Positions 2,769 through 64,000 of a stretch of 64,000 nucleotides of DNA are shown here, piece by piece; the first letter of the stretch is position 1; every line of letters starts with the position of its first letter. Position numbers and translations under genes: made by a program. The DNA is taken from positions 285,510-349,509 of the forward strand of contig CAZMYW010000027.1 in the NCBI GenBank assembly GCA_964570625.1. Reading direction: 5' to 3'. The DNA comes from an uncultured Nitrospirota bacterium. Lineage in GTDB: Bacteria > Nitrospirota > Nitrospiria > 2-01-FULL-66-17. The notes beneath the pieces are model-generated. The model was not told the origin of the DNA, searched no databases, and saw only the letters and a program-made list of their open reading frames with translations.

Positions 2769-2997
2769 CCGACTCCACCCGCGCCCCCGGAGGGCCGATC
2801 CGCAGCCGGCCGATCACCGTCTCGATCACTTCACGGGAGCCTTCCAGTCGCACCTCGACTCGCCCGTCGCGCAGATTTTTGGCGTGGCCGCTCAGCCCCA
2901 GGCGAGTCGCCTCCGCCGCGGCGAAATTCCGGTAGCCGATCCCCTGGACCTGGCCGCTGACGTGAACCGTGGCTTGGTGCACCTTGGTATCGCTCAT
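2713..2997 (-). CDS. acyP: acylphosphatase
   Basis: VHVSGQVQGIGYRNF and GLSGHAKNLRDGRVEV acylphosphatase signatures. Start placed at the second Met (MSDTKV), because the upstream Met would run into tRNA-Pro. Confidence 0.75.
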   Translation of the reverse strand: MSDTKVHQATVHVSGQVQGIGYRNFAAAEATRLGLSGHAKNLRDGRVEVRLEGSREVIETVIGRLRIGPPGARVESVDVRWQAGSSGARGFNVA

Positions 2998-3012
2998 CGC
3001 GTTCCGAACAAA

Positions 3013-3086
3013 TCGGGGTGAGAGGATTTGAACCTCCGACACCCAGCTCCCGAAGCTGGTGCGCTACCAGGCTGCGCCACACCCCG
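3013..3086 (-). tRNA. tRNA-Pro (anticodon CGG)
   Basis: Reverse complement CGGGGTGTGGCGCAGCCTGGTAGCGCACCAGCTTCGGGAGCTGGGTGTCGGAGGTTCAAATCCTCTCACCCCGA folds as a cloverleaf. 7-bp acceptor stem, anticodon loop TTCGGGA, T-arm GGAGG/TTCAAAT/CCTCT. CCA is not encoded. Confidence 0.85.
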
Positions 3087-3166
3087 TTGTTCCCCTGTAA
3101 AAGGCAACTCATCTCGCAGCCTCGGGCCTAAAATTCGGCCCTGCGTTGCGCCAAGCAAGCTCGGTT

Positions 3167-3225
3167 GGAACCTCCGACACCCAGCTCCCGAAGCTGGTGC
3201 GCTACCAGGCTGCGCCACACCCCGT
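3167..3225 (-). pseudogene. truncated tandem copy of tRNA-Pro (5' 59 nt only; T-arm and 3' acceptor strand absent)
   Basis: Direct repeat of 3031-3089 at 3167-3227. The sequence downstream of the repeat (GGAGGTTCCAACCGAGCTTG) cannot form a T-stem or an acceptor stem. Confidence 0.6.
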
Positions 3226-3232
3226 TCCTCTA

Positions 3233-4336
3233 TCAGTGCCATGTTTCCAATCGCAAACGGTGCGCCTCGGCGACCCCAGGATGCACCACCCGGCCGTGGT
3301 AGAGATTCAAGCCGGCACCCAGGGCCGGATCGGCCTTCAAGGCCGGCTCGACGCCGTGTTCAACCAACTTCATGACGTAGGGCAGAGTCACCGCGGTCAA
3401 CGCCTGCGTGGACGTCCTCGGGACCGTACCCGGCAGGTTCGCCACTCCATAGTGAATGACCCCATGCACGATAGCCACCGGGTTGGCCTGCGTCGTTTTC
3501 TTCGCTGTCTCGACGCACCCGCCTTGGTCGATCGACACGTCCACGATCACCGAGCCTTTCCGCATCTGCGCCACGGTTTGCGCGGTGACCAGATGGGGGG
3601 TGCGTCCTCCGGAGACCAACACCGCGCCGACCACCAGGTCCGCTTGCACCACCGTCCCGTGAATCGTCTCCGGACTCGCGATCAAGGTCGTGATCCGGCC
3701 GCCGAACAGATCGTCCACCGCCCGCAGCCGGTTGGGATCCTGTTCGAGCACCGTGACCCGCGCGCCCATCCCGACCGCCATCTTGGCCGCGCTGGTTCCG
3801 ACAATGCCACCCCCGAGGATCGTGACCCGTCCCCGCTCCACGCCAGGAATGCCGGACAACAAGACGCCGCTACCGCCGTTGGTCCGTTGGAGATACGAGG
3901 CCCCGATCTGCACCGCCAGGCGACCGGCGATATCGCTCATCGGCCGCAGCAGCGGCCGCACGCCGTCCGCCTGCGTCACCGTCTCGTACGCGATGCCCAC
4001 GATTCCGGCCGCCAGCAACGCCTCGGTCAGGCCGCGATCCGCGGCCAAGTGCAAGAACGTAAAAAGCGTCTGGCCCTTCTGGATCCACGGATACTCTTTG
4101 GGAAGGGGCTCCTTGACCTTCACGATCAGGTCGCCCATCTTGTACACCGCTTCCGTGGAGGCGACCAGCATGGCTCCCGCCTCCTCGTAGGCGCGATCGG
4201 AGAACCCGCTGCCCTCCCCCGCGCCGCGTTCCACGAACACTTGCGCTCCGAGATGGGCGATCGCACGCACCCCTGCGGGGGTCATCCCGACCCGGTACTC
4301 GTGCTCCATAATCTCGCGCGGAACGCCGACTTTCAT
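3233..4336 (-). CDS. ald: alanine dehydrogenase
   Basis: MKVGVPREIMEHEYRVGMTPAGV N-terminus, an NAD-binding GGGIVGTSAAKMAVGMGARVTVLE fold and length 367 aa. Confidence 0.9.
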   Translation of the reverse strand: MKVGVPREIMEHEYRVGMTPAGVRAIAHLGAQVFVERGAGEGSGFSDRAYEEAGAMLVASTEAVYKMGDLIVKVKEPLPKEYPWIQKGQTLFTFLHLAADRGLTEALLAAGIVGIAYETVTQADGVRPLLRPMSDIAGRLAVQIGASYLQRTNGGSGVLLSGIPGVERGRVTILGGGIVGTSAAKMAVGMGARVTVLEQDPNRLRAVDDLFGGRITTLIASPETIHGTVVQADLVVGAVLVSGGRTPHLVTAQTVAQMRKGSVIVDVSIDQGGCVETAKKTTQANPVAIVHGVIHYGVANLPGTVPRTSTQALTAVTLPYVMKLVEHGVEPALKADPALGAGLNLYHGRVVHPGVAEAHRLRLETWH

Positions 4337-4439
4337 CGCGCCCTCACATGGACGTCCGTGTCCGAATTGGGTTAACGTAGCAGTTCGACCCGCGAAAAGT
4401 CAAACGTTGTCCGAGGTTACGAACGACGCGTTGGCGCCG

Positions 4440-6392
4440 TTAGAAGTTGGCTTGCAAGCCGATGCGCGGTGTGAATCCGGCGCTGGGAAATCCGATGGCT
4501 TCTTCATAGTCGGCATCGAACACGTTATCGACCGCCAGGACATATCGCCACGACGGCCGTGCCGTTTTCCAGGTCATCGCCAGATTGACCCGTGTGTAGG
4601 GAGCTAAATAGCGGTCGCCGGTCGGGATCGACGAGTCCAGAACTCGTCCCACATACAGAACGTCTACATTGACGGAGACGGAGGGAGACGGCTGCCATCC
4701 AACCACGACCCCTCCGCGCCACTCGGGACGGTTTCGGAGCTCTTCTTCGGTGCCCACAATGTCCATCCCCAGGTGGGTGAGATGCGAAGACACGTGAAGG
4801 CGCCCGGTCGCCTGTACACCGACCTCCATCTCCACGCCGTTCCCAACGACCTTCGACCGATTGACCAATTGCGGTGGCGGACCCTCTTGCAGATCGATCA
4901 TGCCGTACGACACCGTGGAAAAATATGCGGCGCGGAGCGTCACCCGCTCACCCCACAGGAGCTGCGTCACGGCCACCTCTCCGCTGTGGCTTCGTTCCGG
5001 CAGCAGATTCGGATTGCCCACGATCGGGTGCCCCAAAGCGAAAAAACTGGGCAATTTGAACCCCTCGCCCCAACTGACCCGAAGGGTCGTGTCAGTGGAC
5101 ACGATCCTGTACGAGAACGCCGAACGAACGCTGACCTCGGCGTCGAACTCACTCGGGATATCCAGCCGCAGGCCTGCGTGGGCGCGCAACCCTTCGGACA
5201 CGGTGTATCGACCTTCGATAAACGGCGCCCAGGCTTGACGGTCCATCTCGAAATCCGCCGGAACAACCGTTCCCCCAAAAGACAGCCCGCCTCGGCTGTT
5301 GCCCCTTTCAGATTGAGCTTCGATTCCCAGCCCCACGGCCAACCGTTCGGTGGGGGTCGACCGGCGAAGGAGCGTCACCACCTGGCGGCGGTACCGACTG
5401 TCGGAAAAGTTGGGCGGAATTCCGGCCGGATCACGCACTCCGGGCGCGACGCCAGGTGAATCAGTCTGATCCTGCCGATCGTAGTATTGGATGGTCAGAT
5501 CGGGAATCCAGGTGGAGGGATCCGCAGCAGACAACTCGATCCCCGCGATCATCTCGGTGGAACCCCCCTCCTCGACCTCGCGCAACACGGCGAAAGACGG
5601 TCCACCGCTGTCCTCCGGGAACGTTTCGCGGTGGCCATCCGTGTAGCTCACCGTGGAGCGGAGTCCAATCCACCGGGTCACCCGGCCGCCGAAACTTCCT
5701 CGAATCGTTTGGTTGACCAACGCGCTGCCCTCCGTCGCGGTTCCGCTGTCGAAATAGGAACCGCTCAACGAATACTCCGCGTCGCCAGAAACCCCCTGGG
5801 CCCGCAAGACCGCGTGACGGTACCCAGCGGGTCCACCGGACACCTCCACGCCTCTGACTGCCTCCGACGCGCCGCGAGGGGTCACGATATTCACGACGCC
5901 CGCCAGTGCATCCGAGCCGTAGATCGCGGACATCGGTCCCCGCACGATCTCGACCCGCTCCACGTTCGCGACATCCAGCGTCGACAGGTCGAACGATCCG
6001 CCGCGGCTATTGGTGGGATCGTTCACCTTCACCCCGTCAATCAGCACAACGGTATAGTTGGGATCGGCGCCTCGAAGGTACAGGGAGCTCACCGCTCCGC
6101 CGCCGGCCTGATCGACGTGTAGCCCCGGAACTTGTCGTAACAGGTCGGGGACATTCCGTGCCTGCTGCGCGGCGATCTGCTCTTTGGTGATCACGGTCAC
6201 GCTGGCTCCGCTGTCCTCGATCGTCGAAGGGAGCACCGTTCCGGTCACCAGGACGGGCTCCAGCGTCACTCGTATCGGGCCTGGCTCATGTTCCGTTTGG
6301 GCCTCCGCTAGAATATCCGGTCCGAGCCACAGGCCGAGGCATGCGGTAAGGGCACCGACGAGACGGACCGATCGAATTTCTCCGCGTCCCAT
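4440..6392 (-). CDS. TonB-dependent outer-membrane receptor
   Basis: Plug-domain motifs (DLLRQVPGLHV, SLYLRGADPNYTVVLIDGVKVNDP, VERVEIVRGPMSAIYGSDALAGVVNIVT) and a C-terminal aromatic residue (..LQANF). The signal peptide begins at the internal Met, so the start was chosen at 6392; the ORF extends to 6464. Confidence 0.85.
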   Translation of the reverse strand: MGRGEIRSVRLVGALTACLGLWLGPDILAEAQTEHEPGPIRVTLEPVLVTGTVLPSTIEDSGASVTVITKEQIAAQQARNVPDLLRQVPGLHVDQAGGGAVSSLYLRGADPNYTVVLIDGVKVNDPTNSRGGSFDLSTLDVANVERVEIVRGPMSAIYGSDALAGVVNIVTPRGASEAVRGVEVSGGPAGYRHAVLRAQGVSGDAEYSLSGSYFDSGTATEGSALVNQTIRGSFGGRVTRWIGLRSTVSYTDGHRETFPEDSGGPSFAVLREVEEGGSTEMIAGIELSAADPSTWIPDLTIQYYDRQDQTDSPGVAPGVRDPAGIPPNFSDSRYRRQVVTLLRRSTPTERLAVGLGIEAQSERGNSRGGLSFGGTVVPADFEMDRQAWAPFIEGRYTVSEGLRAHAGLRLDIPSEFDAEVSVRSAFSYRIVSTDTTLRVSWGEGFKLPSFFALGHPIVGNPNLLPERSHSGEVAVTQLLWGERVTLRAAYFSTVSYGMIDLQEGPPPQLVNRSKVVGNGVEMEVGVQATGRLHVSSHLTHLGMDIVGTEEELRNRPEWRGGVVVGWQPSPSVSVNVDVLYVGRVLDSSIPTGDRYLAPYTRVNLAMTWKTARPSWRYVLAVDNVFDADYEEAIGFPSAGFTPRIGLQANF

Positions 6393-6586
6393 CAAGAACG
6401 CGAATACGCGCGCACCGGACCAGTATCGAACGCACGCGTCAACGAGGAAGCCCCTGCATGGCATACCGCCGGAGAAACAGCCGGTACTGTATCGGCCGAC
6501 TCCTGGAAAATCAATCGAAGCCCCCGGCCTCGATACATCGAGTTCTCCTTTGACACGAAAGCGAGCTCGAGCCTACAATACGGCGT

Positions 6587-7702
6587 TTGGAAGACGCCTT
6601 CAGACACCCGATGACCAACCACACACCCAGTCCCGTCCCCCATTTCATCACGGTGGGATGGCAGGACGGCTGCGTGCGCCTCCTGGACCAGCGCCGCCTG
6701 CCGGAAGAAGTGCGTTACCTCGACTGCACCGACTATCGCGAAGTCGCGGAGGCCATCAGAACCCTGGCGGTCCGCGGGGCGCCAGCCATCGGGATCGCTG
6801 CGGCTATGGGTCTTGCCCTTGGAGCCACGACATTGGTCCCGGCATCGTCCGATGAGTTCCAGAGCGGGCTCTCAAAGATCGCCGACGACCTGGCCTCGAC
6901 CCGCCCGACGGCGGTCAATTTGTTTTGGGCATTGGATCGGATGAAGCGCGTCGCCGCGCAGCATCAACACCTTGAGCGCGGAGCCCTGGTTCGGCGTCTC
7001 ATCCAGGAATCTCAAGTGATACTTGAAGAAGACGTGGCGATGAATCGCGCCATGGGAGCGATCGGCGCCACGTTCATTCACGATGGGAACACGATCCTCA
7101 CCCACTGCAACGCCGGCGCGTTGGCGACCGGCGGGTACGGTACGGCCCTCGGGGTGATTCGGGCCGCGTGGGGAAGCGGGAAGCGTATCCGGGTCGTCGC
7201 CGACGAGACGCGGCCGGTGCTCCAAGGTGCGCGCCTCACGGCATGGGAACTGATGCAAGACAGTATTCCGGTCACCCTGATCACCGACAACATGGCAGGC
7301 GCTCTCATGCGGCAGGGCCGCATCCAAGCGTGTATCGTAGGCGCGGACCGGATCGCGGCCAACGGCGACGTGGCGAACAAGATCGGCACCTACAGCGTCG
7401 CGGTGCTCGCTCGCCATCACGGTCTTCCGTTTTATGTGGCTGCGCCGACCTCCACCCTCGACCTCTCGCTACGCTCCGGCGCCGACATTCCCATCGAATC
7501 CCGCAATTCTCGCGAAGTCACACACGTCCACGGGGGGACCACCGTCGCGCCGGACGGTGTGGAGGTGGACAACCCCGCGTTCGACGTCACGCCCGCAGAA
7601 CTCATCACCGCCATCATCACGGAAAAAGGCGCCTTCCGGCCGGCCGACATCCATCGCCTCAATGGCGACGGCGCATCGTTGGCCCCACACCGTCTCGCGT
7701 AA
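6587..7702 (+). CDS. mtnA: S-methyl-5-thioribose-1-phosphate isomerase (eIF-2B alpha/beta/delta family)
   Basis: [32 protein letters not shown] and [21 protein letters not shown] motifs typical of MtnA. Confidence 0.85.
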
Positions 7703-7754
7703 CCCCCGACCCCCGCCTGACGATCCTCCCGCCCGCGCGGTCGGGGTAGCGCGA

Positions 7755-8123
7755 TTACTCCACCGCCTTCACGTCGGTGACGAAATATTCCGTTTCGCCG
7801 AAACAGGTCGTCGGCAAACCCTTGTGTTGTTCGTAGTGAAGCGAGACTCGTTTCCCCATCAATTGATTGATCCGTTCCACGACCGCGTCGTCTCGCACGG
7901 TAAACAGGAATTTCTCGGGCGACGTGCCAGGCATGGACACCATGGACAGTTCCCCCTCCGATGTTTTGCAGATCCACCCCTTCGTGGACAGTTTCTGGAC
8001 GTAACCGGCTCGTTCACCGGAGGAGTAGCTCCACGTCAGCGCCAACCACACGTACAGAACACCGACTAAAATCGCCGCACCGACCAGCCCGCCGATCCAC
8101 CGCATCACGGTTGTCCTATTCAC
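7755..8123 (-). CDS. hypothetical membrane-anchored protein (single N-terminal TM)
   Basis: 122-aa ORF with a hydrophobic N-terminal helix and balanced composition. No family was recognised. Confidence 0.45.
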   Translation of the reverse strand: MNRTTVMRWIGGLVGAAILVGVLYVWLALTWSYSSGERAGYVQKLSTKGWICKTSEGELSMVSMPGTSPEKFLFTVRDDAVVERINQLMGKRVSLHYEQHKGLPTTCFGETEYFVTDVKAVE

Positions 8124-8173
8124 GATGACCTCCCCGTCTCCTGGATATTCCCTTCACTCCGCTGACTGCGCCA

Positions 8174-9442
8174 TCACTTGACGCCGGAAATCGTGACGAC
8201 CACCCGGCGATTCTTCTTCCTCCCCTCCGGCGTCTTGTTGTCCGCAATCGGATTCGACGGGCCATACCCTTTGGCCGTCAACCGCGATGCGTCCACACCG
8301 AGGTCGATTAATGCTTGCCGCACCGCATCAGCCCGCCGTTGGGACAGGCCCACGTTGTTCTGTACGGACCCAACGTTATCGGTGTGACCCTCGACCTCGC
8401 CCGTAGTCTTCGGCGTGGTTTTCATGAACTCCGCCACGCGCAGGATCTCGCTCTGATACTGCGGCTTGATCACGGCCTTGTTCGTGTCGAACTCGATCGC
8501 CAACTCGATGCTCACCTTCTCTTCCGCCGGCGGTTGCGGAGGCGGACACCCGGTCGTATCCACGCGCTCGCCGCGAGGGGTGTCCGGACAACGGTCAGCT
8601 GCATCTGGCACCCCGTCCCCGTCGGCGTCGGTCGGACAGCCTTGTGGGTCGACCGGCATTCCCTCGGGCGTTCCCGGACACCGATCGTGCATATCCAACA
8701 CCCCATCGCCGTCGGAATCCGCCGGTGGCGGCGGAACCGGCGCAGGAGGAGGAGATGAGGATGGTGGTGGTGCTTGCGGCGGAGGAGGCGGCGCGGCGGC
8801 AGCCATCGGCGAGGGTTGCGCGCCGCCCCACGAGAACACGAGGCCCAGCGTGTACTCCAAATTGTTGTAGGTCGGCGAATTGTGCTGGTCCATGATGTGG
8901 CGGACGTCCGCCCGCAATCCGATCGTTCGATTCAGCGCCCATTTCGCACCCACCCCGTAGTCCACGAGGAAGTCCTCGTCGGCTGCCCCACCAGAATCGG
9001 GATCGAGCTTGATGACACCGAATCCGGCCGCAAGGTAGGGGACGACTCGGGCTTCGGGCATCAGATGCCAGAGCCCTTCGATTCGGTACAGATATCCTTC
9101 CACGTCGACCGGAGCCACCTTCGATTCCGTTCGCAGATAATCGAATGCTCCTTCCAGGGCAAATCGCGACGTCCAGTTAAAGCCCAATCGCAGCCCATAT
9201 ACCGGCTTATGTTTGAGTTCCTGATCCGACTCGAACACGTAGCCCCCGATCACGGGGCTGATCGACCATTCTCCGGCCCGCGTCTCGGCCCAAGCCGGGG
9301 ACACCGCCAACCACACCGACGCTATCGCAATGCTCAACCCGCGAAATGCATTCATCGCCATCCTCCCTGATCCGTTAATGACTGTGTCCGCTGCCTGGCC
9401 GGCAGCCCGAGTCATCGCCTGACCCCAAACGGCCGGCGTCAA
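8174..9442 (-). CDS. OmpA-family outer-membrane protein with Pro-rich linker and thrombospondin type-3 (DxDxDGxxD) Ca-binding repeats
   Basis: Signal peptide and an N-terminal beta-barrel, followed by a PPPPQAPPPSSSPPPAPVPPPP linker. Two TSP3 repeats (DSDGDGVLDMHDRCP, DADGDGVPDAADRCP) precede a C-terminal OmpA peptidoglycan-binding domain (NQALSQRRADAVRQALIDLG, RRVVVTI). Confidence 0.85.
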   Translation of the reverse strand: MTPAVWGQAMTRAAGQAADTVINGSGRMAMNAFRGLSIAIASVWLAVSPAWAETRAGEWSISPVIGGYVFESDQELKHKPVYGLRLGFNWTSRFALEGAFDYLRTESKVAPVDVEGYLYRIEGLWHLMPEARVVPYLAAGFGVIKLDPDSGGAADEDFLVDYGVGAKWALNRTIGLRADVRHIMDQHNSPTYNNLEYTLGLVFSWGGAQPSPMAAAAPPPPPQAPPPSSSPPPAPVPPPPADSDGDGVLDMHDRCPGTPEGMPVDPQGCPTDADGDGVPDAADRCPDTPRGERVDTTGCPPPQPPAEEKVSIELAIEFDTNKAVIKPQYQSEILRVAEFMKTTPKTTGEVEGHTDNVGSVQNNVGLSQRRADAVRQALIDLGVDASRLTAKGYGPSNPIADNKTPEGRKKNRRVVVTISGVK

Positions 9443-9457
9443 CCCGTCGCGTCCGTC

Positions 9458-9901
9458 TCAGGCCGCCCTCACCTCGGACGTACAGTGCGGGCAGCGCGTC
9501 GCTTTGATCGGGATGGTAGAGATGCAGTGTGGACAGGTCTTCGTCGTCGGAACCGCTGGCGCCGACACGGGTTCGCGCTTCAGCCGATTGACCTGTTTGA
9601 CCAGCACAAAGATCACGGCGGCGACAATGACGAAGTCCACCACCGTGTTGAGGAACAGCCCGTAGTTGACTGTGGCTGCGCCGGCCGCTTTAGCCGCCTC
9701 CACCGATGGATACGCGGTGTCGGAGAGATTCAGAAATAGGTTCGAAAAATTCACGCTACCCAACGCCAACCCGATCGGCGGCATCAACACGTCGCTCACC
9801 AACGACGACACGATCTTCCCAAACGCCGCGCCGATGATGATCCCCACCGCCATGTCGAGCACATTGCCGCGCATCACGAATTCTTTGAATTCTTTTAGCA
9901 T
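9458..9901 (-). CDS. mscL: large-conductance mechanosensitive channel MscL with C-terminal CxxC..CxxC zinc-ribbon extension
   Basis: [44 protein letters not shown] is near-identical to the E. coli MscL N-terminus. The start was trimmed to this Met. The C-terminus reads [20 protein letters not shown]. Confidence 0.85.
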
Positions 9902-10127
9902 GGGTCCCTCCCTCATCGTTGAGTTGATTCCCAGACGAACGGTCCCCGTCTGTGCGAGCATCCCGGAGTGGCAATAGCCCAGAGCGACCCGGATTGTACG
10001 AAGAAAGGATCGACATTCCAACCCCCCATTGAAGAGCGCCGACTCCAACGTTTCGGGCGTGACCAGGGGGAGAACCGGCGATGGCGTCAGGCAGGTGTTG
10101 CGGGGTGGCGGTCGGGCCGCGGCGCGT

Positions 10128-10520
10128 TCAGAACATCCGTTCGGTGAGGATTAGGAACCAGATGACTCCTGCGTTGAGCAGGGCCACCAACACGACGGCG
10201 GAGCCCACGTCCTTCGCTTTCCCGGAAAGTTCATGGCGGTCGGGCCCGACGCGGTCCACGACCGCCTCGATTCCGGAGTTGATCAACTCGGCCATGATCA
10301 CGAGGGCGAGACTGCCGATCAGGAGAGCGCGCTCCACGCCGTTACTGCCCACCCATACTGCCAGCGGCGCAAGCACCACACACAGAACCACGTCAGCGCG
10401 AAACGCCCACTCGCTGCGCCAGGCCGCCTTCAACCCATCCAGCGAAAATCCAAGGGCTCGGATCAGCCGCCTGACCGGGCCGGTCGGTTGGGGTTTATAC
10501 CCGATCCGTGGACGCTCGAC
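10128..10520 (-). CDS. dgkA: diacylglycerol kinase
   Basis: [13 protein letters not shown] and [45 protein letters not shown] match DgkA. The start is uncertain: there is no in-frame ATG and a GTG near 10520 or 10475 is possible. The ORF track runs to 10652. Confidence 0.75.
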
Positions 10521-10537
10521 GGGCTGTGAGGGGTTGG

Positions 10538-10969
10538 TCACCTTCGCTTGAGATCCCAGTCGTGGTACCAACTCAGATAGAACTGCAACCGGTTGGACGT
10601 CTCGGCCAATTCGGGATATCGCTCCCAATAGTAGTCCACGCCGATGTGCCACGGCGCGCGACGGAGTTCCACCCCGATTGCGGGCCCGTAGGCATTATAG
10701 AAATCCTTATTGTTTTCTCGGAACCGATAGCGCAGTTCCGCAAACGTGTTCAGGGTCAGCTCACCGGGCAGCGTAATCCAATCGATCCCTTGGTTGACGT
10801 AACCTAACACACCCGGTCCGGCGATATCAGACTTTTCGTAGGCAGCGTGGCCCCACGCGGAACCAGGCAGGGCCTCGATCGCGTACGCCCACCCGCACGT
10901 TCCAGCCCCCATCGCGACCGTGCTCACCGCGATTATCACTACTCGTTTCGTTCTTTCACGCCATGCCAC
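10538..10969 (-). CDS. hypothetical secreted Trp/Tyr-rich protein
   Basis: Signal peptide (AYA cleavage). Sits between bcsG and dgkA in the same orientation. No family was recognised. Confidence 0.45.
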   Translation of the reverse strand: MAWRERTKRVVIIAVSTVAMGAGTCGWAYAIEALPGSAWGHAAYEKSDIAGPGVLGYVNQGIDWITLPGELTLNTFAELRYRFRENNKDFYNAYGPAIGVELRRAPWHIGVDYYWERYPELAETSNRLQFYLSWYHDWDLKRR

Positions 10970-10981
10970 GTGTCTTCCTCC

Positions 10982-12541
10982 TCACCGTCTCGCGGTCTGC
11001 AGAGTTGGTTCCACACCGACCGCGTCCGGCCGCAGCTCGACCCAGTGCATCCCAAACGAACGCCCCTTAGCCAGATACTTCTCCCCGTCTTGCACCACGA
11101 TCGCCCCTTGATTCTCCGCCACGAACGCCGTCGAGGGAATCTGATCCGCTATCACGCGAAGATCCGCCTCGGTGAAATCGAACGCCGGGCGCGACGCGAG
11201 TTGGGCCACCAACGACGCGACGGCTAGATAACTGGTCGGCTGATCCACCACCTGTTGAGCGGGATGATCACCACGGAACCACCCCGGCCCGATCAACTTG
11301 ACCCCAACCGGCACGGTGGTGATGGACGGAAGAGGAACCTCTCGCAATCCAGCCGGCTGCACCCGCGATCCCCGAAGCGCCAGACCGTGTTCAGCGACCA
11401 TGACCACCGCGACACGCCGTCCGTCGGCCTCCATCAAGGAAAAGAACCGATCGAAATCTTGGAATAACGCGCGGACGAACTCGGCGTAGTGAGTCGACCG
11501 ATCGTGCGTCGGCCACTTACGGTCGTCGGCATGGCGCCCACCGTCATGCAGCGTAATCGTGTTGTAGTAGAGCATGGCGCGCGGAGAAGACTCCGCTCTC
11601 CTGAGACGCCACCAGTTGGCCAACACCGCGTAATCGTCGTACACCGGCTCCCCGGTGAAGTCGCGCGCCCGAATCGGGGCATCCCCTCGACCGATCGGCG
11701 GAGACGCGTGTCCCAACCGGGTAATCTCCTCGACCATTCCGCCGTAGGTCCCCTCATGATTCAATGTGGAATACAGTCGGTAACCGCTCGCACTCAATCG
11801 ATCGGGCAGATAACAGTCCTCCCCCGCAGGCCGATACAATGCGTCGTGAGGACTCTGGCCGCAGCCGGACCGCAACAACCGGATGGCCGACGGGTTGCTG
11901 TGCGAGGTCACGGAGTTGAATCGAGTGAACAAGACATCGAACTGATCAAAAAAGGGATCTCGATCCAGGCTCGCCGCGGCCAGATCGTCCCACGACAACG
12001 AACACACGTGTAGCAACACGACGTCGAAATCCGGACCCGGTCGACCTGAAAACGTCACCGTCTGTTCGGCTTGAGCGGCATAAAACGAGGCCAGGGCGCC
12101 ATCCACGCCCTCCGGACCTTTTCCGTAGACCCGGATGGCGACGACCGCCAACAAGACGAGCACCACCGGCGTCAGGCGAATCCGGCGACGGATCAGCACG
12201 GCCACCGCGATCATCGTCACCAGCGCCGCGACTTCCACCGTCGCCAGACTTCGCCACACCAGCTGAGCGAGAAACTCATCCGACGGTAACGGGGTGTCCC
12301 GAATAAAGGTCAAGGCGGACGGAAGGGGCGGCAACCACGAATCATGCCAGGCCAGCAGCACCCCCGACGCAACCGTGACGATCCGACGGCCCCACACCAC
12401 CGCGCGATAACGGATCCAAGATGGCGGGGTGGGCAGCAGGATCCAGGCGGCGAACCCCAGATTCGCCACCACATCGAACGGGATATGTCCCCGGAGGTGC
12501 AGGAACACTTTGGCGAGAAAGTAGTACGCCCACCCACTCAT
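10982..12541 (-). CDS. bcsG: cellulose biosynthesis protein BcsG-like (membrane phosphoethanolamine transferase, alkaline-phosphatase superfamily)
   Basis: N-terminal GWAYYFLAKVFLHLRGHIPFDVVANLGFAAWILLPTP parallels E. coli BcsG GWNFYFLVKFGLLWAGYLNFHPLLNLVFAAFLLMPLP. The C-terminal LLHVCSLSWDDL, FNSVTSHSNPSAIRLLRSGCGQ, YNTITLHDGG and VVMVAEHG motifs also match BcsG. Confidence 0.85.
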   Translation of the reverse strand: MSGWAYYFLAKVFLHLRGHIPFDVVANLGFAAWILLPTPPSWIRYRAVVWGRRIVTVASGVLLAWHDSWLPPLPSALTFIRDTPLPSDEFLAQLVWRSLATVEVAALVTMIAVAVLIRRRIRLTPVVLVLLAVVAIRVYGKGPEGVDGALASFYAAQAEQTVTFSGRPGPDFDVVLLHVCSLSWDDLAAASLDRDPFFDQFDVLFTRFNSVTSHSNPSAIRLLRSGCGQSPHDALYRPAGEDCYLPDRLSASGYRLYSTLNHEGTYGGMVEEITRLGHASPPIGRGDAPIRARDFTGEPVYDDYAVLANWWRLRRAESSPRAMLYYNTITLHDGGRHADDRKWPTHDRSTHYAEFVRALFQDFDRFFSLMEADGRRVAVVMVAEHGLALRGSRVQPAGLREVPLPSITTVPVGVKLIGPGWFRGDHPAQQVVDQPTSYLAVASLVAQLASRPAFDFTEADLRVIADQIPSTAFVAENQGAIVVQDGEKYLAKGRSFGMHWVELRPDAVGVEPTLQTARR

Positions 12542-12589
12542 GGCGTGTCGCCCCTCAGACCCGGTGCGTACGGTGCCCCACGCGCCGCC

Positions 12590-15115
12590 TCATCCCGCCG
12601 TGGTTGGTACGGCGCGCTGCTGCCTCGCCGTGTGCTGGGCGAACTCGATCCACGTGATCAAGAATCGGCTCAGCGGTTCCTCACACCGAAGCCCCACATA
12701 CAAGCCGCCGGCCCTAGACTGTTGCCACACGACGCGCCCCCTGATGGTATACACATCCATGCCGGGGATCAATCGGACCACGCACCGCTCCGCAACCGGG
12801 CCCACCGCGTTGGGGAACCGAATCAACAGTCCGGTCTCGCTCATGTCCTCGGTCAGGCCGCTGATCACGTCGTCGCGCGACACCAACTCGCAGGGAACCG
12901 CAAGGTCGAACCGTGGCGCCAGTCGGCGCACCGAACGGTCCTTCCCGAAGGATCGAACCACCGCCGTCGCCAACCACCCGAGTGAACGCCACATTCCGGT
13001 GTCAATCAGTTGAACCCGCTCCCAGGTCGACGGGGAACAGTACATGTGTCGGATGATGCTCGCTCGTTTGCCTTCGTCCAGTTCGCCGAACTCGATCCCC
13101 ACGAACGAGCTGCGGTCGGCCACACGGTCGTTGCGAACCACGGTTCCGCGAAGTTCCGTGGTCTCCCCGTCGCCCAGGATGCGCACATCCACCTGGCGGG
13201 GCAGCAATCGCGGTGGATCGAGAAACAGCCTCACCCCCGATTCGCTCACGTCGAACGTCCGTGCAAGCAGGACCGCGCCGTCCACGCCCAATTCACACGG
13301 CAGCTCCGCCGCGAGCCGGGTCGCGGTCCGACGCTGCGGACGTTCGCGCGCCACCATCGCCGCGGTGGCGCACAACACGACATTGTACAGGCTCCACACC
13401 ATACTCACCGCCAACGCGGGGTTGGACCGCCCCTCCCGAATGAGTTCCGCAACACCCAGCGCGATTCCGACCAACAACAGCGCCGTGATCACCGCGTAGG
13501 GCGCGCTGGGAATGACGTCCAACCGAGACTTGGGCGATTGAATCCCTTTGGGTGTCACCAAAAACGCCCACGACCGGCGGACGAAAATCGTGGTAAAGGT
13601 TGTGATCGCCAACGGGACCGACATGACCGTCTCGTACAGGTCGGCCCAGAACGGGTTGCGGAACCCTCGCGTGACCACACCCGTCGCCACCACCGCCCCG
13701 ACATAGTGGGCGACATAGAACGTCAGCAGCGAGAGTGTGTCGGCCACCACCACGTATGTCCCGAACAGCAGGTAGGCCAACGGAGCGACCAGGTAGATCA
13801 CTCGGGAAGGACCAAGCAGAAAGTAGTAAATCGACGCGAGATAGTCGATTCGCTGCGCCACGCTGAGTCCCGGGAGGAACAACGGATTATCCCGGGACAG
13901 GAACATTTGAATATGGCCTCGCGTCCAACGCTGTCGCTGCCGGATATAACTGGCGCAGCTTTCCGGCGCCAAACCCGCGGCCAACCGCTTATTGACGTAA
14001 ATCGATCGGTACCCCTTGGCGTGCACCAGCAGGGTCGTGTGGATATCTTCCGTGACCGAGGCGGTCACGAACCCGCCAACCTCTTCGAGCGCCCGCCGAC
14101 GAAAAATCCCGCCGCTGCCGCAGAAAAATACCGAATTGTGTCCGTCCCGACCGGGCTGCACGACCTGGAAAAATAAGTCCTGCTCGTTGATCACGTGATC
14201 TTCGAGCCGAAAATTACGTTGGAAGATATCCGGGTTGTAGAAGTGATGCGGTGTCTGCACGAGCGCGACCTTGGAGTCGTCGAAGTGGCCGACCGTTTCC
14301 ATCAAGAAGGTGCGCACCGGCACGTGATCGGTATCGAACAAGAGGACCAGTTCACCGGACGATTGCGGCAGCGTGTAGTTCAGGTTGCCGGCTTTGCCGT
14401 GCTCGCGGGTCGGACGACTCACGTAAATGCAGTTCAACTGCGCGGCCAATGCCCGGACCTCGGCCCGGCCGCCGTCGTCCAAGACATAGACGCGTTTTCG
14501 CTCGGTCCGGTACTCCATCGCCTGACAGGCCACCAGGGTTCGCCGGAGAATGTCGATCGGCTCGTTGTAAATCGTCACGAACACGTCGACCGTCGGCAAC
14601 TGCTCCCGATCAGCGGTTTTGGGCGGACGCTGGATCGGGTTGACGATTTGGAAATAAAAGAACAACACCCCGCCCAGCCCATACAGTTCAGCGGCCAACA
14701 CGGTCAGACTCAGCCCGAGACTGAGCGGATCAGCGGTATTGAGCGTGTACAAGCCGCGCCACAACAGGTAACGGGCGGTCAGGATCACGCTGAGCCCGAC
14801 CACGAACCACTGGAGTTTGCGGCTACGCGGACGCCGAGTTGCGACCACCACGATGACCGCCAGCAGGACCACCGAAATCACCCCGTCGGTGCTGCTCGCT
14901 GCTCCCGGCCACAGGCTCACAGTCTCGGGCGCAGGACCGCCCTCCGGTGAAGGGGAGGTGGCAACGGGTTCCTGGGTCCGGCCGATCCCGGAAGCGAAAC
15001 ACAGCGCCGCCAGGATCAGGGTCCCGGCTAAGAGAACCCGACCCAGGCTAGACTCCAGGGACCAACCGAACACGCCGTACGGTCGGTTATGTTGGATACT
15101 CCCCTCGCTCACCAC
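12590..15115 (-). CDS. bcsA: cellulose synthase catalytic subunit BcsA-like GT2 with two C-terminal PilZ domains
   Basis: VLDDGGR, the DTDH region, FFCGSGGIFRRRAL, TEDIHTTLLVHAKGYRS and QRQRWTRG (QxxRW) are present. Two RxxxR...D/NxSxxG PilZ modules follow (RRTATR..DVSESG; RRLAPR..DMSETG). Confidence 0.85.
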   Translation of the reverse strand: MVSEGSIQHNRPYGVFGWSLESSLGRVLLAGTLILAALCFASGIGRTQEPVATSPSPEGGPAPETVSLWPGAASSTDGVISVVLLAVIVVVATRRPRSRKLQWFVVGLSVILTARYLLWRGLYTLNTADPLSLGLSLTVLAAELYGLGGVLFFYFQIVNPIQRPPKTADREQLPTVDVFVTIYNEPIDILRRTLVACQAMEYRTERKRVYVLDDGGRAEVRALAAQLNCIYVSRPTREHGKAGNLNYTLPQSSGELVLLFDTDHVPVRTFLMETVGHFDDSKVALVQTPHHFYNPDIFQRNFRLEDHVINEQDLFFQVVQPGRDGHNSVFFCGSGGIFRRRALEEVGGFVTASVTEDIHTTLLVHAKGYRSIYVNKRLAAGLAPESCASYIRQRQRWTRGHIQMFLSRDNPLFLPGLSVAQRIDYLASIYYFLLGPSRVIYLVAPLAYLLFGTYVVVADTLSLLTFYVAHYVGAVVATGVVTRGFRNPFWADLYETVMSVPLAITTFTTIFVRRSWAFLVTPKGIQSPKSRLDVIPSAPYAVITALLLVGIALGVAELIREGRSNPALAVSMVWSLYNVVLCATAAMVARERPQRRTATRLAAELPCELGVDGAVLLARTFDVSESGVRLFLDPPRLLPRQVDVRILGDGETTELRGTVVRNDRVADRSSFVGIEFGELDEGKRASIIRHMYCSPSTWERVQLIDTGMWRSLGWLATAVVRSFGKDRSVRRLAPRFDLAVPCELVSRDDVISGLTEDMSETGLLIRFPNAVGPVAERCVVRLIPGMDVYTIRGRVVWQQSRAGGLYVGLRCEEPLSRFLITWIEFAQHTARQQRAVPTTAG

Positions 15116-15389
15116 GGTCCTCGATCGCGTGCCGTTTTACCACACCGTCAGCCGGCAAGTGAACGCCGGTCACGGCTCACGCGTTACGGGAAAGACCGAT
15201 AAAGGGCCTGCTTTCCTCCGAAGCAATTCGAATGAATAGCTAAAAACTTTCCGCGATCCTCTTTCACTGACTCGCGGCTATGAGGGTCGGGGCGCCGATA
15301 TCGCGAGTGTCCGAGGGGTTCCTCGGGCCTTGGGGGCAGGGTCGTTCAGAATTGAACAGGATCGGAAGCCGGCCGACCGGCTGCGTCCG

Positions 15390-16007
15390 TCAGACGCCTT
15401 CTCCGCGGCATGGCGGGCAGCATCTAGCTCCCCCGACCGCCGCAACCAAACGGGTTTCCATCGTCCATTCCCCGCAACGCTCACATGCAGCGGAAGCAAA
15501 GATCCGGGCTGTGGGTGGAGGAGGGACATCGATGGGAGACACGGAAAACAAATCCCGTTCAGGAAGATCGAGGACGCGATGGGAGAGACTGGTCATTTCA
15601 CGGCCAAACCGCTGCTGTTCCGAGGGAGACGCGTCGCCTCCCAACACACGGTTCATCAACGCGGTGAAGGCCACGCCTTCTCCGCGGTCGAAGGATTCCC
15701 AGAAGTGGCAGTAGACTCGAACCGCTCGACCGGTTCGACGATCCACAAACGTATACGCGGCCTTTCCGTACGGGCGATAGACGAGGTTCCCTTTGCCGAA
15801 TGTGCAGCCCGTCACGGCCTGCACCGCGTCCACGGAACAGGAATCATTTTCTACGATCGCCACCAGTTCCTCGTCGCGCGGGCGCTCGCAGGACAGTTCG
15901 CGCATCGCCGCCTTGGCGACGCGGTACCCCATGGCGATATCCAGACAGAGGTGACCGTGAAACGCCACCACCGCGTTGAACTCCGGATCGGTCGATCGGT
16001 CGCTCAC
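15390..16007 (-). CDS. FmdE/FwdE-family protein with C-terminal zinc ribbon
   Basis: AFHGHLCLDIAMGYRVAKAAMREL FmdE signature and a C-terminal CERCGEW...CCPPC ribbon. The start was reassigned to the GTG at 16005-16007. That GTG overlaps the TGA of the upstream small ORF as GTGA, and the long N-terminal part of the track ORF is low-complexity. Confidence 0.65.
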   Translation of the reverse strand: MSDRSTDPEFNAVVAFHGHLCLDIAMGYRVAKAAMRELSCERPRDEELVAIVENDSCSVDAVQAVTGCTFGKGNLVYRPYGKAAYTFVDRRTGRAVRVYCHFWESFDRGEGVAFTALMNRVLGGDASPSEQQRFGREMTSLSHRVLDLPERDLFSVSPIDVPPPPTARIFASAACERCGEWTMETRLVAAVGGARCCPPCRGEGV

Positions 16008-16366
16008 AGGCCGCTCGAACTGGCCAGCGCGCGGGTGACGCACTCGATGATCCGGAACGGCTGCGCGGCTCGGCACTGCCGACAGGAGAGTTCCGAAAAA
16101 TCGCGCTGCACATCGACCGCGCGCACGTATACGGATGCCAAGTGATCCGCCGCACACGTCGCGAGGGGTTCCGCCACTAAGACCTCCGGAGGATCGGCGG
16201 GGCCAGACTCCGTCGAATCCCAACTCGCCAGGCGAACGGCGTGCCGAATCCGGCACGCCCGACACGCGACGACCATTCCGGACTGATTCAACCGCTTGAC
16301 CGCCAGGTCATTGCGGTGCATCGCGAAACACTGTTGCAAAAACGCGGAACTGAGAAACGTCGTCAT
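16004..16366 (-). CDS. small Cys-rich hypothetical protein (two CxxC pairs)
   Basis: 120-aa ORF starting 6 nt after the sigma-54 activator stop and translationally coupled (GTGA) to the FmdE-like gene. CRACR and CRQCR motifs are present. Confidence 0.4.
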   Translation of the reverse strand: MTTFLSSAFLQQCFAMHRNDLAVKRLNQSGMVVACRACRIRHAVRLASWDSTESGPADPPEVLVAEPLATCAADHLASVYVRAVDVQRDFSELSCRQCRAAQPFRIIECVTRALASSSGL

Positions 16367-16372
16367 GGCGCC

Positions 16373-17902
16373 TTAGACCGACGACAGTCCGTACTTTCTG
16401 AGTCGATACCCCAATTGCCGGGGCGTGATCCCCAGCAACTTGGCGGCTCTAGCCTGCACGCTATGCGCCTCTTCCATCGCCTTGAGGATCTGCTGCCGTT
16501 CCAGTTCTTCCACCGTCGAGGTCAACGACGTGTCTGATTCCGGGACAACGGAAAACGAGCGCGAACGCTCCCCGACCACCCCAATGACATCTTGAAGCGT
16601 GATTTGCGGTTGCCGGCCCATGATCACCATCCGCTCCAGCGTGTTCTCCAATTCACGGACGTTGCCCGGCCATTGGTGTTCCACGAGGCGAGCCAGCGCG
16701 TCCGGCATGATGGTGGTTGGTCTCTGATGCTCCAGGCGAAGCCGCTTCAGAAAATGATCGACCAGCAACGGGATATCCTCCTTGCGTTCACGCAGCGGCG
16801 GCACCCGAATCGGAACCACCTTGAGCCGGTAGTACAGGTCCTCGCGGAACAGGCCCTCGGCCACGGCCCGTTCAAGGTCCCGATTCGTGGCGGCGATCAA
16901 ACGAACCTGGACGGTAATGGGCCGAGTCCCCCCGACCCGCTCGAACGTCCGCTCCTGCAACACACGGAGTAATTTGGATTGCATCCCCAACGGCAGTTCA
17001 CCGATCTCATCCAAAAACAGGGTGCCGCCGTCAGCCAACTCGAACCGCCCCTTGCGGAGCGCAGTGGCGCCGGTAAACGCCCCCTTCTCGTGCCCGAACA
17101 GTTCACTCTCGATGAGGTTCTCGGGCAATGCCGCGCAGTTGAGCGTGATGAACGGTCCCTCGGCCTGCGGACTGTTGTAGTGCACCGCGCGTGCGATCAG
17201 TTCCTTCCCCGTCCCGCTCTCCCCCAGCAACAACACCGTGGCGCGGCTTCCACCGACCTTCTCGATGGATTCGAACACTTCGACCATCGCCCCGCTCCGC
17301 CCCACGATCGGCGACGCACGATATTTGGCCTGTAACTGGTGTTGGAGAGACAAGTTCATCGCCTCAAGCTTGCGGCGCTCTTCATCCACCAACCGCTGCA
17401 GCTTAACGGCCTGCCCGATCAGCGACGCCACCACCGCGAGGACCCGCACATCCTCGTCGAGACTGACGGCCGGGTCAGGAGCCGGCCGATCGACGCTGAG
17501 CACCCCGAGGGTTTCGCCCTGCGCTTGAACCGGCACCGCGACCAGTGCGAGTCTGGACAGATCCGCCCGCGACTGCGTGCGGTTGAGGAACAACGGCTCT
17601 TTCCCCAAATCAGGCACGATCATGGGTTCGCCGTTCGTGAACACGGCACCCGTCACCCCCTCGGCGGTCTTGAATCGTCCGCGCGCCATTTCCTCCTCCG
17701 TGAGTCCGTACGCCGCGGTGATCACCAGGTCGTCGGTCCCCGGGTCATGCAGGGCGAGAGTGCCTCGCGTCGTGCCGAGCACCGTGCCGAGAATGCGGAG
17801 GACCTCGTGGCTCGTCTCTCGGATATCGAGTGACGTGGCGAGGCCTCGCGCCACCTCGTACAGGCACGTGAGTTCCTGGACTTTACGTTCGAGCGGGGTC
17901 AT
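16373..17902 (-). CDS. sigma-54-dependent transcriptional activator (GAF sensor + AAA+ + Fis-type HTH; NifA/FhlA-like)
   Basis: N-terminal GAF domain, Walker A GESGTGKE, the GAFTGA motif (EKGAFTGA), an arginine finger region and a C-terminal HTH ([22 protein letters not shown]). Confidence 0.9.
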
Positions 17903-25920: not shown

Positions 25921-26085
25921 CTAACGCGAGGAAACGTTGGGATCGCGCGGAGGCGGAACGGTTCCGGCGATGCGATTCTGGGGAATGAGGACGGTGCGCT
26001 TGCAGCGACGGCACTTCAGCTCCAGGACATCGCCTCTCCACCGGGCCATGAGGCCACCGCACAAGCAGCGGACTTCGGACGCCAC
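25921..26085 (-). CDS. small Com-like zinc-ribbon protein
   Basis: VRCLCGGLMARWRGDVLELKCRRCKRTVLI resembles phage Mu Com (..IRCPHCNKLL..ELKCPRCK..). Start placed at the GTG with a GGAAG RBS. The track ORF start at 26148 abuts the operator and leaves no RBS. Confidence 0.45.
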   Translation of the reverse strand: MASEVRCLCGGLMARWRGDVLELKCRRCKRTVLIPQNRIAGTVPPPRDPNVSSR

Positions 26086-26150
26086 TTTTTCTTCCGCTCG
26101 GCGGGGAGTCACGAGGCTCGATTTCGGTGTCTGTTCACGCTCACCCAATT

Positions 26151-26218
26151 GATAATGGAATTAGATTTCAATTTCATTAAATGGGCGTCATAGTAGTAGG
26201 ATCGGAACAGCTTGTCAA
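26151..26218 (-). promoter_or_regulatory. promoter/operator module 1: TTGACA, 17 nt, TACTAT, followed by a Fur-box-like AT-rich palindrome (GATAATGGAATTAGATTTCAATTTCATTA)
   Basis: Read on the minus strand: -35 TTGACA (26213-26218), -10 TACTAT (26190-26195), then the palindromic AT-rich site 26151-26180 immediately upstream of the Com-like/porin operon. About 80 bp is homologous to module 2. Confidence 0.5.
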
Positions 26219-26279
26219 GCGGGAACGTTCGGACGTGGGAGTTCAGGAACGCCGCGGACGGCGGCGTTGCCCGGTAGGA

Positions 26280-26753: not shown

Positions 26754-26856
26754 GGTACCTCCCGGACGATGTGGTGACGGGGCTCTAGAACGTGAACGAG
26801 TGGCACCGTATCTCACCGGACCGGGGGATGTCAACAAGGTGCGAGGAACGCAGGGG

Positions 26857-27078
26857 TTACGAGCGGCTGGAGGTGCCGGCTGGAGCCATTCGCTTGGTTT
26901 TGAACTGTTCGGTTCGGGCAAGCGCGGCGAGATCCGCAATCCGCGTCACGCAACGTCCACAACAGTCGTCCCGGTCGATGCCCAGTTCCTCGGCCAACGC
27001 TTTGGGGCTGACGATCCCTGCGCGACCCAAGCTGCGGACATGGGAATCGGTGATGCCTTTACATAAACAGATATACAT
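26857..27078 (-). CDS. bfd: bacterioferritin-associated ferredoxin (2Fe-2S)
   Basis: MYICLCKGITD ... CCGRC cysteine pattern. 73 aa. Confidence 0.8.
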   Translation of the reverse strand: MYICLCKGITDSHVRSLGRAGIVSPKALAEELGIDRDDCCGRCVTRIADLAALARTEQFKTKRMAPAGTSSRS

Positions 27079-27096
27079 ATGCGACCGCCCTCACCG

Positions 27097-27425: not shown

Positions 27426-27437
27426 GGGGAAACTGGA

Positions 27438-31249: not shown

Positions 31250-31254
31250 GGATG

Positions 31255-63989: not shown

Positions 63990-64000
63990 GGCCCGAAACT

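Follow-up and report, generated by a model that had tools for sequence, protein, structure and literature searches.

A putative four-gene module for secretion of a cellulose-like glucan in Nitrospirota, with a BcsA-like synthase carrying two PilZ domains, BcsG and a new family of predicted outer-membrane barrels

In a 64-kb stretch of DNA from an uncultured Nitrospirota bacterium (contig CAZMYW010000027.1; hereafter the window), positions 10128–15115 hold four co-directional minus-strand genes related to bacterial cellulose synthesis (bcs) genes. From upstream to downstream these encode a BcsA-like protein, that is, a cyclic di-GMP (c-di-GMP)-gated processive family 2 glycosyltransferase (GT2) synthase (12590..15115; an open reading frame (ORF) of 841 amino acids, assigned by Pfam, NCBIfam and motifs); BcsG, a membrane-anchored periplasmic phosphoethanolamine (pEtN) transferase (10982..12541; TIGR03368, PF11658); orf143, a protein of 143 amino acids predicted from a model of its family to be a six-strand outer-membrane half-barrel with a Sec signal peptide (10538..10969); and the diacylglycerol kinase DgkA (10128..10541; about 137 amino acids; PF01219). 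The gaps between the genes are 48 nucleotides (bcsA–bcsG) and 12 nucleotides (bcsG–orf143), and the TGA stop codon of orf143 overlaps the GTG start codon of dgkA at 10541 in the sequence GTGA. This packing indicates that the four genes form one operon, and the overlap indicates that dgkA is co-translated with orf143; the true start of dgkA is probably the GTG at 10541 and not that of a longer ORF. The neighboring genes, mscL about 226 nucleotides downstream and an fmdE-like gene about 275 nucleotides upstream, look separate from the operon. The promoter and ribosome-binding site presumably lie within the region of about 275 nucleotides between the fmdE-like gene and bcsA (15116..15389, minus strand, from a reading of the sequence), and a GAGGA Shine–Dalgarno sequence is found 2–5 nucleotides ahead of the double GTG-GTG start of bcsA at 15115/15112. 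A scan of positions 9300–16400 for promoters and terminators returned counts no higher than the shuffled expectation, with no convincing σ70 promoter or terminator. The base composition of the operon is that of the surrounding DNA and so gives no sign of recent transfer. The gene identities, coordinates and strand set out here bear out the original prediction for this locus, which had been made from the sequence alone and had named a bcsA, a bcsG, a gene for a secreted protein and a dgkA.

That prediction also ascribed to the synthase all of the BcsA motifs and two PilZ domains, and both attributions were confirmed by a motif scan and by Pfam. In particular, the scan, together with an alignment to chain A of the structure 7lby (7lby_A), located DDG213, DTDH261, FFCGS330, TED355, QRQRW393 and the gating loop FLVTPK518, and Pfam assigned a GT2/Cellulose_synt region and two PilZ stretches. 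The PilZ signature RxxxR...DxSxxG occurs twice, at residues 592 and 727, and is complete both times. PilZ domain 1 (13040..13336, minus strand; residues ~594–692; RTATR ... DVSESG) is the best Pfam PilZ stretch and aligns with the PilZ domain of Escherichia coli BcsA. PilZ domain 2 (12626..12943, minus strand; residues ~725–830; RLAPR ... DMSETG), the second Pfam PilZ stretch, stands where canonical BcsA has its C-terminal helix region; the predicted c-di-GMP-binding motifs of both domains are intact. Two complete pairs of PilZ motifs were present in 87 of the 120 closest homologues, and the searchable literature held no description of tandem-PilZ cellulose synthases. The protein as a whole consists of an N-terminal hydrophobic helix, a variable linker, three more transmembrane (TM) helices, the GT2 domain, TM helices 5–8 and the two C-terminal PilZ domains. 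Since the N-terminal helix and the variable linker recur in homologues of 55–85% identity, the long form of the protein is probably real. (We considered whether the extra N-terminal helix might be a built-in replacement for the TM anchor of BcsB and rejected the idea, because the hydrophobic segments are the normal four TM helices that precede the glycosyltransferase domain.)

The closest relatives of solved structure are E. coli BcsA (403 bits; 35.9% identity over 613 amino acids, E. coli residues 178–796) and Rhodobacter BcsA (329 bits), and the top matches in the PDB (7lby, 9b8v and 9fmv) are all BcsA. Among the NCBIfam models, TIGR03030 (CelA) gave 600.7 bits, below its equivalog cut-off of 699.1, and NF008558 gave 488.6 bits, below its cut-off of 992; both scores far exceed that of any other family, the next being PgaC with 70 bits. 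We found no counterpart in the BcsA-like protein of the N-terminal domain of E. coli BcsA, the alignment beginning at about E. coli residue 178; this domain, of about 140 residues, recruits and positions the BcsG trimer in E. coli (PMC11379886).

The bcsG product matches PF11658 (E = 1e-130) and passes the cut-off of TIGR03368 (427.8 versus 410.2). It is a full-length homologue of E. coli BcsG (37.7% identity over 485 amino acids) whose TM and catalytic domains both align to chain B of 9b8v (9b8v_B), and its linker is short. Residues C180, S215, H332, E384, H385 and R400 correspond in the alignment to C243, S278, H396, E442, H443 and R458 of the E. coli protein, among which we take the serine to be the nucleophile and the cysteine, glutamate and histidine residues to bind zinc. 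Because the nucleophile and the zinc ligands are conserved, the enzyme looks catalytically competent. S278 is the nucleophile of E. coli BcsG (PMC11379886).

The third gene had been described in the original prediction as encoding a signal-peptide protein. The protein does carry a predicted Sec signal peptide (...AYA, followed by IE), and the description missed that orf143 is the key third component of the locus, half of the barrel of a new family of putative outer-membrane porins. The hidden Markov model (HMM) check proposed for this protein, once run, gave nothing beyond chance-level matches to Pfam and NCBIfam families for orf143 and 16 relatives, and our own profile led to an unannotated family of barrels. 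A search with the barrel profile returned 198 cluster representatives (E <= 0.001) among 1.84 billion, and the 268 barrel sequences that we collected comprised 106 single units, 124 tandems, 18 long proteins (688–1459 amino acids) and 20 fragments. Many homologues of orf143 are proteins of about 250–300 amino acids made of two tandem copies of the unit. One such tandem homologue, modeled from a 77-sequence alignment, gave twelve strands with a predicted local distance difference test score (pLDDT) of 94 and a predicted template modeling score (pTM) of 0.82; the tandem form is confidently modeled as a closed 12-stranded outer-membrane barrel, and orf143 is predicted to be a six-strand half-barrel, one unit of the tandem barrel. 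TamA barrels ranked second and fourth among the structural matches of the tandem model, and several 12-stranded barrels, namely BrkA, the KdgM-family oligogalacturonate porin VhGalP, Hbp, Tsx, intimin and NanC, ranked between 3rd and 26th. A polar motif, NQGIDW, is strongly conserved in the family, which also has R, E and D residues that are conserved. Comparison of the family with the E. coli BcsC barrel by hhalign gave a probability of 0.1%, no single, tandem or TPR-fused member matched the PF05420/NF008520 barrel, and the KdgM/NanC family HMM did not match the family. No description of it was found in the searchable literature.

Two properties of the barrel family bear on what orf143 might do. 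The two halves of a tandem share on average 52% identity within a protein (up to 94%), compared with about 39% between proteins, and identity matrices with average-linkage clustering did not separate N-terminal from C-terminal halves into two clades. Halves that are more alike within than between proteins indicate that the six-strand unit was duplicated repeatedly, and repeated duplication is expected if single units already function in pairs. The other property concerns the long members, every one of which has both repeats at its extreme C-terminus. All nine that were scanned have an N-terminal part rich in tetratricopeptide repeats (TPR), and none has a BcsC-barrel match. In all four contexts long enough to tell (loci L019, L029, L030 and L031 of the set described below), the gene for the TPR–barrel fusion directly follows bcsB–bcsZ and hence occupies the slot of bcsC in classical clusters; bcsG comes next in L019, L029 and L031, and the contig of L030 ends first. 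A TPR array with a C-terminal barrel is the hallmark of the synthase-dependent exopolysaccharide exporters BcsC, PgaA and PelB (PMC8892547). (Note that this arrangement after bcsZ is seen in the fused members; orf143 itself has no TPR and six strands.) From the fold, the three architectures and the synteny of the family, we infer that orf143 is most likely an outer-membrane exit pore that works as a homodimer and serves as the counterpart of the BcsC barrel.

We collected related loci from contigs that encode BcsA homologues and from a scan of species genomes with the barrel alignment, and annotated them with phmmer. A bcsA of the tandem-PilZ type together with a barrel gene was found at 14 loci: the window, L001–L005, L007–L012, L017 and L024 (L006 duplicates L005 and was not counted). 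Twelve of the 14 also have bcsG, the exceptions being L003 and L024. Pairs of bcsG and barrel gene also occur beside a different BcsA-like or GT2 gene (L020, L021), in the absence of a synthase within 10 kb (L015, L026), and beside a divergent classical bcsA-bcsB-bcsZ cluster (L013). The hosts are mostly Nitrospirota metagenome-assembled genomes (MAGs), joined by MAGs of Deltaproteobacteria, Elusimicrobia, Nitrospinota and Bdellovibrionota. Li and Romling termed the BcsG proteins of Nitrospirota and Elusimicrobiota 'free-standing' (preprint 10.64898/2026.09.23.753746); this label is contradicted for many BcsG proteins of Nitrospirota, since a BcsA-like gene adjoins bcsG at the loci collected here. 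Their remark was the only related item in the searchable literature (BcsG with Nitrospira; Nitrospirota with bcsA), which contained no description of the module.

No BcsB, BcsZ or BcsC was found by Pfam among the 28 large ORFs across the window, and phmmer queries with the E. coli BcsB, BcsC, BcsZ, BcsE and BcsF proteins (taken from L025) had no match in the window either; for BcsF, which at 63 amino acids is near the ORF size limit, this is weak evidence. A six-frame hmmsearch at maximum sensitivity with profiles of BcsB and BcsZ (3 sequences) left the window and the tandem-PilZ loci empty and matched only the two control loci that do have these genes. These searches confirm the original prediction that bcsG stands where bcsB usually does and that bcsB is missing from the window, and an adjacent or fused bcsB, looked for again as a possible refutation, was found neither there nor in the 14 related loci; all 14 module loci, taken together with as much as 10 kb of flanking DNA, lack bcsB, and the tandem-PilZ loci lack a GH8 gene. 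Where bcsB does occur, in L013, L019, L029 and L031, the adjoining BcsA has a single PilZ domain (one each in L013 and L019) or is PilZ-poor, and is never of the tandem-PilZ type. Given that bcsB is consistently missing in this clade, the usual adjacency or fusion of bcsA and bcsB (PMC8892547) and the BcsB-less Bcs systems known in cyanobacteria (PMC8892547, PMC12430437), the synthases of this clade are likely, as judged from their gene content, to be independent of BcsB.

Two loci of the set carry another gene where bcsG would stand. In L003, whose BcsA is 55% identical to that of the window, a glyoxal/galactose-oxidase-like gene (13100–14569, plus strand; Glyoxal_oxid_N and GO-like_E_set) takes the bcsG position, flanked by the barrel gene and dgkA. 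A copper-radical oxidase of this kind could act on the C6 hydroxyl of the sugar in place of pEtN addition. In L024 a PMT_2 membrane glycosyltransferase gene (GT-C, ArnT/PMT-like; 8261–9808, plus strand) fills the slot from bcsA to the barrel gene. These replacements suggest a general plan of synthase, exchangeable periplasmic modifier and barrel. Further PMT_2 genes are found close to the module in L004 (17050–19176, minus strand) and L026 (15058–16461, minus strand); the PMT_2 genes of all three loci could stand for an alternative periplasmic decoration or for a coincidence. Other loci vary in further ways. L022 encodes a BcsA homologue of 1013 amino acids (6844–9885, plus strand) with an N-terminal TPR fusion (residues ~93–231) and two PilZ stretches; a single barrel gene comes directly after it, and bcsG is absent. 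L020, from a Nitrospinota MAG (2313–8192, plus strand), has a BcsG of 773 amino acids with a 250-residue N-terminal extension, a tandem barrel and a 274-amino-acid gene product of unknown kind, after which comes a GT2 synthase that carries MshEN, a different c-di-GMP receptor, in place of PilZ. In L013, from a Deltaproteobacteria MAG, bcsB is spread over two frames (11394–13648, minus strand; ORFs of 437 and 314 amino acids, both strong BcsB matches), which reflects a frameshift or pseudogene, or else a fault in the assembly. A Guanylate_cyc gene, for a class III nucleotidyl cyclase and not a GGDEF protein, stands ahead of bcsABZ, the TPR–barrel gene and bcsG in L029 (2209–3018) and L031 (312–1145, plus strand), and L029 has an adenylate cyclase nearby as well. 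L001 and L002 are distinct bcsA-bcsG-barrel-dgkA cassettes of the same assembly, GCA_040960215.1, with BcsAs 86% and 61% identical to that of the window; they are either paralogous cassettes in one organism or the product of a mixed bin.

Taken together, the gene identities, motifs and packing, the fold and three architectures of the barrel family, and its genomic linkage to bcsA, to bcsG and to the BcsC slot make it rather probable, in our judgment, that the locus is a four-gene operon for minimal, c-di-GMP-activated, synthase-dependent secretion of a cellulose-like β-glucan. Beyond this we infer the chemistry of the polymer, a half-barrel that dimerizes, a synthase that needs no BcsB and a metabolic role for DgkA, as in the following scheme. 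The BcsA-like GT2 in the inner membrane would polymerize UDP-glucose and translocate the chain via a TM channel of its own, with c-di-GMP gating the synthase through PilZ domain 1 and the motif-complete PilZ domain 2 providing an additional c-di-GMP site. In the periplasm, BcsG would transfer pEtN from phosphatidylethanolamine to the nascent chain, releasing diacylglycerol, which DgkA would convert to phosphatidic acid. The six-strand half-barrel of orf143 would insert into the outer membrane and pair with a second copy, and the resulting 12-stranded pore would let the polymer exit, in the role that classical systems give to the C-terminal barrel of BcsC. Such a system would run without BcsB, BcsZ or a TPR scaffold. 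The fuller claim joins a BcsB-independent synthase, regulated through two c-di-GMP-binding PilZ domains, to export of its pEtN-modified product through a homodimeric half-barrel; the barrel would be a second means, unrelated to the first, of carrying out the BcsC export step, and its evolution by repeat duplication could be followed in living lineages. We advance this claim only tentatively.

Several observations weigh against this interpretation, and they lend themselves to other explanations of the locus. With no periplasmic scaffold, such as a BcsB crown or TPR, encoded nearby, the scheme does not account for passage from the inner to the outer membrane, nor, since the BcsA-like protein lacks the BcsG-recruiting N-terminal domain, for the positioning of BcsG. 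A bcsB gene or a bcsAB cluster may moreover lie elsewhere in the genome, our search having covered the 64-kb window and the flanks of the loci. The module would then be an accessory or paralogous part of a conventional Bcs system, with bcsB, and perhaps bcsZ and bcsC, encoded at another site. We regard this as unlikely, although 64 kb of the genome are visible, Li and Romling gave the same caveat for Nitrospirota BcsG proteins, for which incomplete genomes leave bcs clusters elsewhere possible (10.64898/2026.09.23.753746), a Nitrospirae MAG (L019) does have a classical bcsA-bcsB-bcsZ cluster, and BcsB is co-catalytic for BcsA in the systems studied (PMC8892547). The usual juxtaposition of the two genes, the lack of bcsB at all 14 loci, the fact that each bcsB we did find adjoins a BcsA of its own without tandem PilZ domains, and the cyanobacterial precedent all argue against it. 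The NCBIfam scores of the synthase fall short of both cut-offs and so do not settle how the glucan is linked. It is thus conceivable, though in our view improbable, that the product is not a β-1,4-glucan (it might be, for example, mixed-linkage or β-1,3) and that BcsG modifies such a polymer or some other acceptor in the periplasm. The joint absence of BcsB, BcsZ and BcsC from the window, the variable slot between synthase and barrel (oxidase-like in L003, PMT_2 GT-C in L024) and the bcsG–barrel pairs that lack a nearby bcsA would fit such a product; it is disfavored by the retention of FFCGS, TED, QxxRW and FxVTxK in an end-to-end alignment with E. coli BcsA, by the mere 70 bits of PgaC, the next characterized GT2 family, by a BcsG that scores above its equivalog cut-off, and by the presence of the same barrel and BcsG families in canonical bcsABZ clusters.

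The bcsG–barrel pairs of L015 and L026, with no bcsA within 10 kb, also mean that the barrel could be tied primarily to BcsG. Across the loci bcsG is indeed its tightest partner, and this, the conserved polar NQGIDW motif with the conserved R, E and D residues, and a barrel gene with no bcs genes nearby (L023) would suit an orf143 that is not a pore at all, being instead an outer-membrane enzyme or an accessory of BcsG (compare PagL, LpxR, OMPLA or an anchoring protein). We consider this quite improbable, because the barrel follows a TPR array in the BcsC slot in all four informative contexts, because it stays with bcsA where bcsG is absent (L003, L022 and L024), and because its top structural matches are transport barrels; a pore remains our preferred assignment. 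The place of DgkA in the scheme is less secure. The protein matches PF01219 over profile positions 2–102 of 102 (113.7 bits; gathering threshold 22.3), and the original prediction joined it to BcsG in a loop in which the kinase recycles the diacylglycerol released by pEtN transfer. By analogy such recycling is plausible: the loop makes chemical sense, linkage of pEtN transferase genes to dgkA is documented for mcr-3 and mcr-8 (PMC10285318, PMC7559476), and experiments in papers cited by PMC10285318, as far as they are reported there, indicate that DgkA supports pEtN transferases. The linkage itself proved to be optional and, within the cassette, confined to the closest subclade: dgkA accompanies it in the same arrangement in the window, L001, L002, L007 and L008, which form one related subclade with shared flanking genes, for example an IF-2B family gene, and it is absent from L004, L005, L009–L012, L017, L019, L021 and L026, so that most modules do without it. 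In addition, L003 retains dgkA-mscL where bcsG has been replaced. A housekeeping diacylglycerol kinase gene that lies downstream by chance and has no tie to BcsG would account for these facts, and we hold that explanation to be somewhat doubtful but a real contender. Set against it are the co-translation implied by the GTGA overlap with the barrel gene, the persistence of dgkA in the cassettes of L002 and L008, in which mscL was not detected, the independent bcsG-dgkA adjacency in the architecturally different cluster L029, and the experimental precedent just cited. In our reading, DgkA is an optional, lineage-specific accessory that eases a build-up of diacylglycerol, and it does not define the module.

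The module resembles the Bcs systems that secrete pEtN-cellulose and matches no described type. With the type II system of E. coli and Salmonella (bcsRQABZC and bcsEFG; pEtN-cellulose) it shares the catalytic and gating motifs of BcsA, PilZ, the BcsG residues and the logic of the by-product, in which phosphatidylethanolamine yields pEtN and diacylglycerol. It differs in that the window has no BcsB, BcsZ, BcsC, BcsE, BcsQ or BcsR (BcsF being too small to exclude), in a BcsA without the BcsG-recruiting domain of about 140 residues (PMC11379886) and with a second PilZ domain for the C-terminal helix region, in the short linker of BcsG, in a dgkA within the operon, and in an outer-membrane component that is a six-strand half-barrel where type II has TPR and a 16-strand barrel. 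Homologues of orf143 are, like the barrels of BcsC, PgaA and PelB, found C-terminal to long TPR arrays, in the BcsC position (L019, L029, L030 and L031), and a role in outer-membrane passage is predicted for both. The orf143 family nevertheless has 12 strands arranged as 2 x 6 repeats, compared with the 16 of BcsC, to which it has no detectable sequence similarity, and the version in the window has no TPR and is half a barrel. The cyanobacterial type IV system (XcsA with HlyD-like XcsB and a TolC-like protein) likewise has a PilZ-bearing BcsA-type synthase without BcsB, BcsC or BcsK (PMC8892547, PMC12430437); here, by contrast, the scanned ORFs gave no HlyD or TolC match, BcsG and a small barrel are found instead, the neighbors of the synthase gene are fmdE-like, bcsG, the barrel gene, dgkA, mscL and an ompA-like gene, and the hosts are Nitrospirota, Nitrospinota, Elusimicrobia, Bdellovibrionota and Deltaproteobacteria MAGs. 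The locus thus departs from the type II definition in BcsB, BcsC, BcsZ, BcsE and the BcsA N-terminal domain, and from the cyanobacterial one in HlyD and TolC. Compared with the 12-stranded barrels of PcoB, of KdgM, NanC and VhGalP, and of autotransporters, the orf143 family shows 7–13% identity and no Pfam match to those families, and it has an internal 2 x 6 repeat and exists as a free half-barrel. In the mcr-3 and mcr-8 cassettes, as here, a pEtN transferase of the alkaline phosphatase superfamily lies next to a dgkA that removes diacylglycerol (PMC10285318, PMC7559476); they differ in an acceptor that is lipid A and not a glucan, in having EptA/MCR and not BcsG, and in the absence of a synthase or porin. 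(The pseudomonad 'orphan BcsA-like' cyclic glucan synthases of the NdvB type (PMC10237404) were considered as an analogue and rejected, since they are GH17–GT2 fusions.)

Elsewhere in the window, a c-di-GMP-I riboswitch (60496–60578, plus strand; RF01051, 52.3 bits against a gathering threshold of 35) lies directly upstream of an ORF for 283 amino acids (60604–61455, plus strand) with a zf-HC2 zinc finger of the anti-sigma-factor type, and overlaps the 5' end of a long ORF on the opposite strand (59306–60610). A stand-alone PilZ gene (54919–55425, minus strand) encodes a further c-di-GMP receptor. Judging by the riboswitch and this PilZ gene, c-di-GMP signaling is clearly active in the host. 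The MscL homologue downstream of the operon (9458–10048, minus strand) has a Cys-rich C-terminal extension, CPHC...CPHC, with weak matches to the UPF0547/DZR zinc ribbons, which is unusual for MscL, and downstream of it lies an OmpA-family gene (8174–9442, minus strand) whose product combines an N-terminal outer-membrane β-barrel with a long linker rich in proline and with calcium-binding thrombospondin type 3 repeats. Three large ORFs, of 746 (41438–43678, plus strand), 580 (29639–31381, minus strand) and 398 amino acids (24636–25832, minus strand), have no Pfam match and a high G+C content at third codon positions (GC3), 0.78–0.80. Positions 60001–64000, with a G+C content of 0.53–0.57 compared with about 0.63 elsewhere, an HNH-endonuclease ORF (61729–62751, plus strand; GC3 0.48) and a DUF4468 ORF, may be foreign DNA. 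A second dip in G+C content (0.557) spans 26001–28000 and adjoins a ferritin-like gene.

BcsB is regarded as an indispensable co-catalytic partner of bacterial BcsA. If this interpretation is correct, a widespread clade that consistently does without BcsB and still has BcsG would offer a simpler system in which to learn what BcsB contributes, and would show how BcsG is positioned without the N-terminal domain of the enterobacterial BcsA. How cellulose passes the outer membrane without BcsC is an acknowledged open question (PMC8892547), and the barrel family of orf143 is a concrete candidate for such an exit, its placement in the BcsC slot making the idea testable. With a six-strand protein, tandems of 2 x 6 strands and TPR fusions, the family also presents a rare natural case for the assembly of barrels from sub-barrel units, and its genes, as part of a cassette of three or four, would be an attractive means of producing a chemically modified cellulose in a heterologous host.

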